A DNA stretch of 14,865 nucleotides from a virus (taxonomy: Duplodnaviria; Heunggongvirae; Uroviricota; Caudoviricetes), in the IMG/VR virus record IMGVR_UViG_2531839179_000012, one strand, 5' to 3'. Positions 13,890 through 14,865 of the stretch are shown piece after piece. Position 1 is the first letter of the stretch, and each line of letters opens with the position of its first letter. A program made the position numbers and the translations under genes. A model generated the notes under the pieces. That model was not told where the DNA came from and ran no database searches. It saw nothing but the letters and a program-made list of their open reading frames with translations.

Positions 13890-14707
13890 AACTGGAAGAT
13901 TTACCGAAATACTACTCCCCAAAATCCCCTGGCCTGACCGATGCATCGGCCTCAACGTCAAAAGATGCGCTGAGTATCACTGATGTGATGGCCGCGCAGG
14001 GCATGACACAGAATCGGGCTGAGATGGGGTTTTCTGCGTTCCTGGGGAAAATGGGCATCAGTATGAATGACAGGGCGCGGGCAACAGAATTACTGGCAGA
14101 TTATGCACTCAGTCGGTGCGATCGTGTGGCGGCGTTGAGAAAACTTCCGGCAGAAATAAAACCGGTAGTGATGCGCATTATGGCTTCGTACGCTTTTGAG
14201 GATTATGCCCGCAGCGCAGCGAGTAAAAAGCAGTGCCCTTGTTGCTATGGGGAAAAATTTATTGAAAGCGTAGTTTTTACAAACAAGGTCCAGTATCCGG
14301 ATGGTAAGCCGCCGGTATGGGCAAAGTGTACGAAAGGTGTGTATCCGTCTTACTGGGAAGAATGGAAAAAAGTCAGGGAGGTGGTAAAAGTTGCCTGTCC
14401 GGAGTGTGGCGGAAAGGGTGAGGTTTCCACCGCCTGTAAGGATTGCCGTGGGCGTGGTGTCGCCATTCACCGTGAAGAGTCGGTAAAACGTGGTATGCCT
14501 GTTATCAGAGACTGCCAGCGTTGTGGTGGTCGTGGCTATGAAAGACTACCATCAACGGAGGTATTTAATGCTATATGCGAGGTGACAAACCAGATAACAC
14601 GCGCGTCATGGGAAAAAACAGTTAAGAAATTCTATGATGCGCTGGTGACCCGGTTTGATATTGAAGAAGCATGGGCTGAGCGGCAGTTAAAAAAGGTAAC
14701 TAGGTAA
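13886..14707 (+). CDS. Late-gene antiterminator, lambda Q family, with an internal insertion of about 65 aa carrying extra CxxC motifs
   Basis: Colinear with my recollection of lambda Q: MKLEDLPKYYSPKSP...ITDVMAAQGM...ASYAFEDYARSAAS...CKDCRGRG...CQRCGGRGYERLP...WEKTVKKFYDALV...VTR. 273 aa against a recalled 207 for lambda. Immediately followed by a PR'-like promoter. Confidence 0.75.
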   Translation: MKLEDLPKYYSPKSPGLTDASASTSKDALSITDVMAAQGMTQNRAEMGFSAFLGKMGISMNDRARATELLADYALSRCDRVAALRKLPAEIKPVVMRIMASYAFEDYARSAASKKQCPCCYGEKFIESVVFTNKVQYPDGKPPVWAKCTKGVYPSYWEEWKKVREVVKVACPECGGKGEVSTACKDCRGRGVAIHREESVKRGMPVIRDCQRCGGRGYERLPSTEVFNAICEVTNQITRASWEKTVKKFYDALVTRFDIEEAWAERQLKKVTR

Positions 14708-14712
14708 CAAGG

Positions 14713-14750
14713 TTGATTTTTCCGGAATCTGTGGTAAATTCGTCATAACG
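14713..14750 (+). promoter_or_regulatory. Late promoter of the lambda PR' type, with a pause-inducing -10-like element (probable Q-utilisation site)
   Basis: -35 TTGATT (14713-14718), 16-bp spacer, TGG-TAAATT extended -10 (14732-14740), then TAACGATGGG (14746-14755). Lambda PR' as I recall it has TAAATT followed by AACGATGGG. Confidence 0.6.
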
Positions 14751-14787
14751 ATGGGCTTTTTATGCCTGACGTTAGAAGAGTTTCTAC

Positions 14788-14812
14788 AACCCGCCGCCGA
14801 GCGGGTTTTTTA
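14788..14812 (+). terminator. Intrinsic terminator downstream of the late promoter (tR'-like)
   Basis: GC-rich stem CCCGC (14790-14794) / GCGGG (14801-14805), loop CGCCGA, followed by TTTTTTATT (14806-14814). Confidence 0.6.
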
Positions 14813-14850
14813 TTGCGGAATTAATTACGGACCGTTATTATTCTGCTCCC

Positions 14851-14865
14851 GGCCTTTAGCTCAGT
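14851..14865 (+). tRNA. Probable 5' end of a tRNA gene, truncated by the window edge
   Basis: GGCCTTTAGCTCAGT matches the canonical acceptor stem plus D-arm start (..TAGCTCAGT..) of enterobacterial and phage-borne tRNAs. Only 15 nt are visible, so identity and anticodon are unknown. Confidence 0.35.

Follow-up and report, generated by a model that had tools for sequence, protein, structure and literature searches.

Organization of the locus

The stretch of DNA analysed here, referred to as the window, is 14,865 nt in length and ends shortly after a 273-aa open reading frame, the last long one that it contains. Between this reading frame and the window edge lies a closely packed series of elements, all on the same strand, which are listed below with the promoter elements as read from the sequence.

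13886..14707, + strand: Q antiterminator gene, 273 aa, lambda Q family; its start overlaps the stop of rusA (RusA resolvase)
14713..14740, + strand: late promoter PR′, with the same −10 element as lambda PR′
14713-14718, + strand: −35 element TTGATT
Between the −35 and −10 elements, + strand: 16-nt spacer TTTCCGGAATCTGTGG, the presumed Q-binding element (QBE)
14732-14734, + strand: TGn (extended −10)
14735-14740, + strand: −10 element TAAATT, as in lambda PR′
14747-14752, + strand: predicted +1 and sigma-dependent pause element (SDPE) AACGAT (+1 to +6), in the lambda register
14753-14755, + strand: GGG (+7 to +9), following AACGAT
14761..14764, + strand: TATG (+15 to +18), a match to the T-N-Y-G pause-site consensus (PMC9191641); predicted pause position
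14788..14811, + strand: intrinsic terminator (tR′ equivalent) from a terminator scan and fold, with stem AACCCGC/GCGGGTT, loop CGCCGA and T6
14813..14841, + strand: tRNA promoter (pT), with −35 TTGCGG, 17-nt spacer and −10 TATTAT, homologous to pT of 933W
14851..14865, + strand: start of a tRNA-Ile2(CAU) gene (ileZ type), first 15 nt GGCCTTTAGCTCAGT, cut by the window end and assigned from near-identical relatives

A Q-dependent cassette of the lambda family is defined by a Q gene, PR′, QBE, SDPE, a terminator and late genes (PMC9388147). The window contains a PF03589 Q gene upstream, a sigma-70-type promoter sequence, an SDPE, a T-N-Y-G motif and an intrinsic terminator, and we consider it very probable that this segment is a switch of the lambda-Q family, by which a lambdoid prophage places its late genes under Q control. 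The analysis directly shows these elements, their register and conservation, the family of the Q gene and the gene order in relatives, whereas the positions of initiation, pausing and Q binding, as well as any activity discussed below, are inferred by analogy.

A lambda-family Q gene adjoins the promoter

The product of the 273-aa reading frame matches the antitermination protein Q family (PF03589; E = 8.5e-55, 183 bits) as well as the structure of lambda Q (7UBM, chain 7UBM_Q; E = 1.3e-39). In the alignment with this structure, residues 1-113 correspond to lambda Q residues 1-113, and residues 182-273 correspond to lambda Q residues 116-207. The reading frame is full length and 99% identical to those of its relatives, and its stop codon lies 5 nt upstream of the −35 element. 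Judged by its sequence, the gene that adjoins the promoter on the 5′ side is thus a true lambda-family Q. A literature search for quuQ returned nothing relevant.

Alignment of seven Q proteins reveals that the N-terminal motifs SPKSP and TDVMAAxGM, the zinc cysteines (C184/C187 and C210/C213) and a C-terminal VTR are invariant, while divergence is seen in the C-terminal part aligned to the body of lambda Q, which in lambda contains a helix-turn-helix. The N-terminal segment of lambda Q forms the nozzle (PMC9388147). The presence of an invariant N terminus and a divergent C-terminal body agrees with the class-specific promoter spacers described below.

Compared with lambda Q, the window protein carries a 68-aa insertion (residues 114-181, window positions 14225-14428) located at the junction between body and arm. 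The insertion contributes two more CxxCxGxG motifs (C117/C120 and C171/C174) in addition to those common to both proteins (C184/C187 and C210/C213), for a total of four versus the two present in lambda. These four motifs account for a weak match to DnaJ_CXXCXGXG (29 bits, under the cut-off), and they suggest that the insertion probably forms a second zinc ribbon.

Promoter and pause element share the lambda register

The −10 element TAAATT is the same as that of lambda PR′, and AACGAT begins six bases past it, which is the same sequence at the same distance as in lambda (NC_001416). The lambda promoter reads TAAATT-tgactc-AACGATGGG and the window reads TAAATT-cgtcat-AACGATGGG, with equal spacing and identity at 15 of 21 bases. 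A search of the window for the composite pattern TAAATT-N6-AACGATGGG yields a single match, free of mismatches; for this 15-base pattern, only 0.06 matches are expected by chance in the window even if as many as two mismatches are tolerated.

A consensus for the scrunched pause, T+14 N+15 Y+16 G+17, has been defined on lambda PR′ (PMC9191641). If the first A of AACGAT is taken as +1 in lambda, positions +14 to +17 read TTCG, the published ‘perfect match’ to this consensus (PMC9191641), and thus the numbering from this nucleotide is right. With the same numbering, the T-N-Y-G match in the window falls one base further downstream than in lambda, as it does in 14 of the 23 tabulated loci, and a paused RNA of approximately 17 nt is predicted by analogy. 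The −35-like element located 5′ of the pause hexamer, TTGACT in lambda, is degenerate in the window, where it agrees at merely 3/6 positions.

The remainder of the promoter departs from lambda to a greater extent. The −35 element is TTGATT, accompanied by TGn, compared with TTGACT in lambda, and the spacer is 16 nt rather than 17 nt in length and is unrelated in sequence. PR′ was not called by a generic promoter scanner, as its weak hexamers match the consensus at 8/12 positions (manual count) and the cut-off of the scanner is 9. We rejected this miss as evidence against PR′, since the element falls a single position short, lambda PR′ itself just reaches the cut-off with merely 9/12 positions, and the element is conserved.

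The cassette recurs behind diverse Q genes

Among 5,426 complete E. coli genomes, 1,523 contain a match to the final 266 bases of the window; the match extends over 80% or more of these bases in 1,261 genomes, and every match is chromosomal. Phages mEp460_ev081 and vB_EcoS-640R1 are 99% identical across Q and the switch region. For a broader view of conservation, 16 loci of Q relatives (one genome per species) and divergent E. coli copies were anchored on the pause hexamer; the resulting counts cover 22 non-lambda loci, corresponding to 18 distinct transcript sequences. The Q relatives share 40-99% protein identity with the window Q and derive from about ten enterobacterial genera, including Escherichia, Shigella, Kosakonia, Phytobacter, Mangrovibacter, Buttiauxella, Scandinavium, Atlantibacter and Entomohabitans.

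A promoter, the 6-nt gap, AAYRAT followed by RGG, and an intrinsic terminator are present in all 22 non-lambda loci with the exception of one (L010), in which a hairpin lies directly 3′ of Q. Promoter, pause element and terminator are also found behind Q relatives of just 40-49% protein identity. In six divergent loci, the PR′ block is kept with one G/C change, and the 10 bases 5′ of the −35 element are unconserved there. Three variants of the pause hexamer occur among the 18 distinct relatives (AACGAT, AATGAT and AATAAT), with A1, A2, A5 and T6 being invariant. In lambda, A2 and T6 are the pause-hexamer positions that matter most to sigma region 2.

These observations bear on the alternative that the hairpin merely terminates the early-right (Q) operon and that the resemblance to the lambda promoter and pause element is coincidental. 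A hairpin located about 80 nt past the Q stop is indeed plausibly placed for an operon end, and the promoter hexamers are below the scanner threshold. Against this stand the low chance expectation for the 15-base lambda-register pattern, its position behind a lambda-family Q, the retention of the register behind Q genes of 40% identity, and the invariance of A2, A5 and T6. We regard a coincidental resemblance as exceedingly improbable, and we interpret the elements as a PR′ with its pause signal.

In contrast to the hexamers, the promoter spacer is constant inside a Q class and differs between classes, and it lacks resemblance to the lambda QBE. It reads TTTCC(G/C)GAATCTGTGG in the 273-aa Q class and contains TTCAAAAA in the 250-aa Qin-type class; a more lambda-like version, GGGGAAAAATTGGC, is found in Entomohabitans. 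The existence of class-specific versions is as expected for a Q-specific binding site, and by its position and conservation the spacer is presumed to be the QBE.

The Qin-type (quuQ-like, 250 aa) cassettes of E. coli, Shigella and other enterobacteria belong to the same family as the window cassette, and share with it the AACGATGGGC start, the pattern of the 5′ leader and a terminator T-run that also ends within +54 to +71. They differ in that their Q proteins, with approximately 40% identity to the window Q, have a shorter insertion, in that the promoter takes the form TTGCAT ... TTCAAAAA ... TAGGAT, and in that they are mostly without a downstream tRNA.

The AATAAT and AATGAT hexamers occur in cassettes that are otherwise near-identical (positions 5862-5867 of L002, from phage vB_EcoS-640R1, and the equivalent positions of L006 and L008). 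AATAAT is nearer to the −10 consensus than is AACGAT, and such variants might change the strength of the pause and the timing of late-gene expression.

A close-set terminator defines a short leader

The terminator stem (14788-14807) consists of 7 bp, five of which are G-C, and is followed by T6 (14806-14811). With +1 at 14747, the stem begins at +42 and the last base of the T-run is +65, and a terminated RNA of approximately 65 nt is thus predicted. A 67-nt transcript folds with −20.6 kcal/mol (z = −2.4), and RNAalifold analysis of the 18 sequences retains the terminator hairpin, with two-sided compensatory changes in four pairs.

In lambda, the T-run ends at +194, giving rise to the 6S RNA. 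Among the Q relatives, it ends between +54 and +71 in 18 of 18 distinct non-lambda sequences. Given this distribution behind 18 distinct Q relatives, a close terminator and a short terminated leader are the norm of the lambda-Q family, with the 194-nt lambda RNA representing the outlier; the StxS RNA of Stx phages, at 258 nt, is likewise long.

The initial annotation, which had been made from the letters of this DNA, described a PR′/qut-like late promoter with a sigma-dependent pause element and a terminator some 45-65 nt downstream, much closer than lambda tR′. The lambda-family Q upstream, the hexamer in lambda register and its recurrence behind Q genes of 40-49% identity bear out the first of these proposals, and the coordinates of stem and T-run agree with the second, at a distance of approximately 65 nt versus 194 nt in lambda.

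Conservation within the leader

Across Q classes, the region +1 to +27 (window 14747-14773 and its equivalents in L002-L023) is more conserved than the promoter spacer, and to a greater degree than the SDPE, GGG and T-N-Y-G signals account for. A stem-loop could be formed at the 5′ end of the RNA by pairing of AACG (1-4) with CGUU (24-27) and of GGG (7-9) with YYY (19-21), and the lambda counterpart of this stem would be AACGA/UCGUU. Of the alignment cells, 95% are paired, a fraction that drops to 31-42% if the 3′ partner is displaced by 1-3 columns. Every change at the G-Y pairs preserves pairing, and all of these are single changes. A covariation test of the 5′ helix detected no compensatory double change, and alignments with shuffled columns scored no lower than the true one; we therefore rejected covariation as proof of structure in the 5′ leader.

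A search of Rfam returned no family at threshold for this RNA: isrK scored 18 bits (threshold 50), Trp_leader 25 (threshold 41), and rseX and others were likewise below threshold. As these matches are driven by the terminator hairpin, membership of the leader in an Rfam family was rejected. The conserved CGTT at +24 to +27 is not explained by known DNA signals.

The conservation of the leader raises the question of whether the RNA itself has a role. According to this alternative, the nascent RNA needs the 5′ stem-loop, and the approximately 65-nt transcript, which would be made constitutively in more than 1,200 sequenced E. coli lysogens, serves as a trans-acting sRNA like StxS or as a protective or regulatory 5′ leader, with its conservation then reflecting RNA function in addition to DNA signals. 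A precedent exists in the Stx phages, where the RNA left over from PR′-tR′ transcription is an sRNA that binds Hfq; other antiterminated promoters have been proposed to give rise to RNAs of this kind (PMC7547250). The excess conservation of +1 to +27, the potential 5′ pairing, and a Rho-independent terminator with a U-tail at the 3′ end all accord with such a function. However, the SDPE, GGG and T-N-Y-G motifs act at the DNA level and already account for much of the conservation, the 5′ helix fares no better than shuffled columns, and Rfam provides no family at threshold. Homology to StxS is also absent, as similarity to 933W begins at 14811, past the terminator. We consider a functional RNA unlikely.

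A separate promoter precedes the truncated tRNA gene

Directly past the terminator, pT aligns column for column with the element annotated in 933W as ‘pT; putative tRNA promoter’ (AF125520, 21082-21110), which is located just 5′ of ileZ. In the window, pT ends 9 nt 5′ of the tRNA start, and 39 bases separate the end of T6 from that start. For the Stx2a phage of strain Sakai, a primary start site has been reported in the interval that separates tR′ from the tRNAs (PMC7547250). The presence of a separate promoter suggests that the tRNAs are probably not strictly Q-dependent, and that they are made in the lysogen without Q in addition to being produced by Q-dependent readthrough.

ARAGORN detects no tRNA in the window, of which only 15 nt belong to the gene. 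In loci that are near-identical over the final 266 bases, a tRNA of 76 nt with a CAU anticodon begins at the equivalent of 14851; this tRNA is annotated as tRNA-Ile in RefSeq and scores 72.5 bits against the Rfam tRNA model. Positions 14851-14857 of the window read GGCC-TTT, where GGCCCTTT is found in 1,332 of 1,332 E. coli places, and one C of the acceptor stem is consequently missing. Over the 54-nt stretch 14812-14865, identity stays below 99% at each of the 1,332 E. coli places, and exact-match scans for the window's variant of the tRNA start found none in a one-genome-per-species set or among IMG/VR viral contigs. A chimera formed from the 5′ end present in the window and the 3′ part of L001 is still called as a tRNA, with a 1-nt connector between acceptor and D stems and loss of U8. 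The missing C might be either a homopolymer sequencing error or a private mutation that disables the tRNA. A literature search for ileZ, argN and argO yielded nothing useful.

Downstream modules in relatives and in Stx phages

In relatives, the tRNA-Ile gene is often followed by two tRNA-Arg genes (UCG and UCU), and past the tRNAs lie genes for DUF3927, iraM (on the opposite strand), DUF1737, holin, YdfR, lysozyme, Rz and terminase. FDAARGOS_944 is the sole E. coli genome with a matching upstream mosaic (98% identity), and in it one tRNA is followed by lysis genes, with no toxin.

Four named phages, Stx2_EH1910 (LC567834), mEp460_ev081, vB_EcoS-640R1 and Evi, carry the same Q class with 88.6-99.3% nucleotide identity, and the promoter, pause element and terminator are common to these and the window. 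They diverge in what follows the terminator. In vB_EcoS-640R1, whose pause hexamer is AATAAT, this is one tRNA and lysis genes, while in the Stx2a-converting phage Stx2_EH1910 it is a hypothetical gene, a DNA methylase gene, three tRNAs (Ile2-Arg-Arg) and stx2AB. At least one Stx2a phage thus has its stx2AB genes driven by this Q class, and for this reason the promoter, pause element and terminator of the class matter when toxin expression is compared between Q types.

An O157:H7 prophage that has an unrelated DUF1133 gene in the position of Q shares sequence with the window from 14788 onward, and Stx2_EH1910 and phage Evi share sequence up to 14811 only. As homology breaks at both 14788 and 14811, the terminator is, as judged from these alignments, a mosaic recombination joint between the Q module and the tRNA-cargo module.

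The late region of 933W/Sp5 contains the same order of parts, with Q, pR′, qut, terminators (StxS RNA), pT, ileZ-argN-argO and stx2AB. Homology to 933W, approximately 88% over window 14811-14865, extends from pT into ileZ, and the tRNA set of 933W, Ile2(CAU)/Arg(UCG)/Arg(UCU), is that of the window's relatives. In contrast, the Q of 933W is of a different, non-homologous type, annotated as similar to those of H-19B and DLP12, and its pR′-to-tR′ transcript is not homologous to that of the window. In Stx phages, this transcript (StxS) is 258 nt in length (PMC7547250). Moreover, 933W/Sp5 carry stx2AB, and the nearest relatives of the window are without toxin.

It had been suggested from the letters of this DNA that the window is cut 15 nt into a probable tRNA and that a layout of Q, PR′, terminator, tRNA, cargo and lysis genes applies. 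The 76-nt tRNA-Ile of near-identical loci supports the former, and the latter is found in relatives, including stx2AB in Stx2_EH1910, and matches the 933W annotation. The accompanying proposal was that whatever Q controls lies just beyond the window; in relatives, the lysis genes are present there, and the tRNA, which has its own promoter, is probably not strictly Q-dependent.

Proposed mechanism

The likeness to lambda Q/PR′/qut (QBE plus SDPE)/tR′ encompasses a homologous Q (PF03589), an identical TAAATT, the 6-nt gap, AACGATGGG, a T-N-Y-G motif, an intrinsic terminator and late lysis genes downstream, the last being observed for the window in its relatives. The window differs in the 68-aa insertion of its Q, with two extra CxxCxGxG motifs, and in the tRNA genes past the terminator. 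By analogy with lambda, sigma-70 host RNA polymerase would initiate constitutively at about 14747, after which sigma region 2 would re-bind the −10-like AACGAT and hold the polymerase in a scrunched pause near +17 (TATG). Without Q, the polymerase would escape and stop at the hairpin and T6, thereby producing an RNA of about 65 nt. When present, Q would recognize its own binding site within the promoter spacer and load onto the paused complex, with its conserved N terminus forming a nozzle at the RNA-exit channel. Polymerase loaded with Q would then pass this terminator and later ones to transcribe the tRNA gene(s), small cargo genes, the lysis cassette and morphogenesis genes. Directly past the terminator, pT would drive the tRNA-Ile2 gene, such that the tRNA could be made in the lysogen without Q.

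Such an arrangement is that of the textbook lambda Q switch, to which the window adds little, and this Q type is very common in E. coli prophages. The PR′/qut/tR′ elements of the 273-aa Q class can be annotated by homology in more than 1,000 genomes.

Condition of the prophage

Several features of the window indicate that the prophage that carries this switch is decaying. An IS3-family element occupies 933-3311 on the minus strand, with orfA at 2988-3311 and orfB at 933-1751, and is split by an IS30-like transposase gene (1836-2987); an IS5-like DUF4096 reading frame (6115-6564) lies in the early region. The gene for a replicative DnaB-type helicase (11870-13261) is broken by an in-frame TAG at 12449-12451. 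In FDAARGOS_944, the same helicase gene contains IS600, and several pseudogenes are found in the late region. These insertions point to a host rich in IS elements, for instance Shigella or an E. coli closely related to it.

Because of the IS insertions and the in-frame helicase stop, the switch may no longer serve lytic growth in its host. Taken further, the cassette could be an intact-looking relic within a defective prophage, in which the outputs left are the constitutive short RNA and, provided that it still functions, the tRNA. This reading concerns present function and is compatible with the identity of the segment as a Q switch. In addition to the interrupted and broken genes in the window and in FDAARGOS_944, the private 1-nt deletion at the tRNA start argues in its favor. 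On the other hand, Q has been kept as a full-length reading frame nearly identical to those of its relatives, the promoter, pause element and terminator are the same as in 1,000+ other copies, and defective prophages can still express Q-dependent lysis genes. We therefore view a relic as a possibility that is somewhat doubtful, and retain the Q-dependent switch as the identity of the cassette.

The early-right region of the window also includes a 615-aa reading frame (8012-9859) with Ash and Rha (Phage_pRha) domains, and just upstream of it a second reading frame with a Rha domain (7317-8090). In relatives, these Ash/Rha reading frames are annotated as antirepressor-like (Ant) genes.
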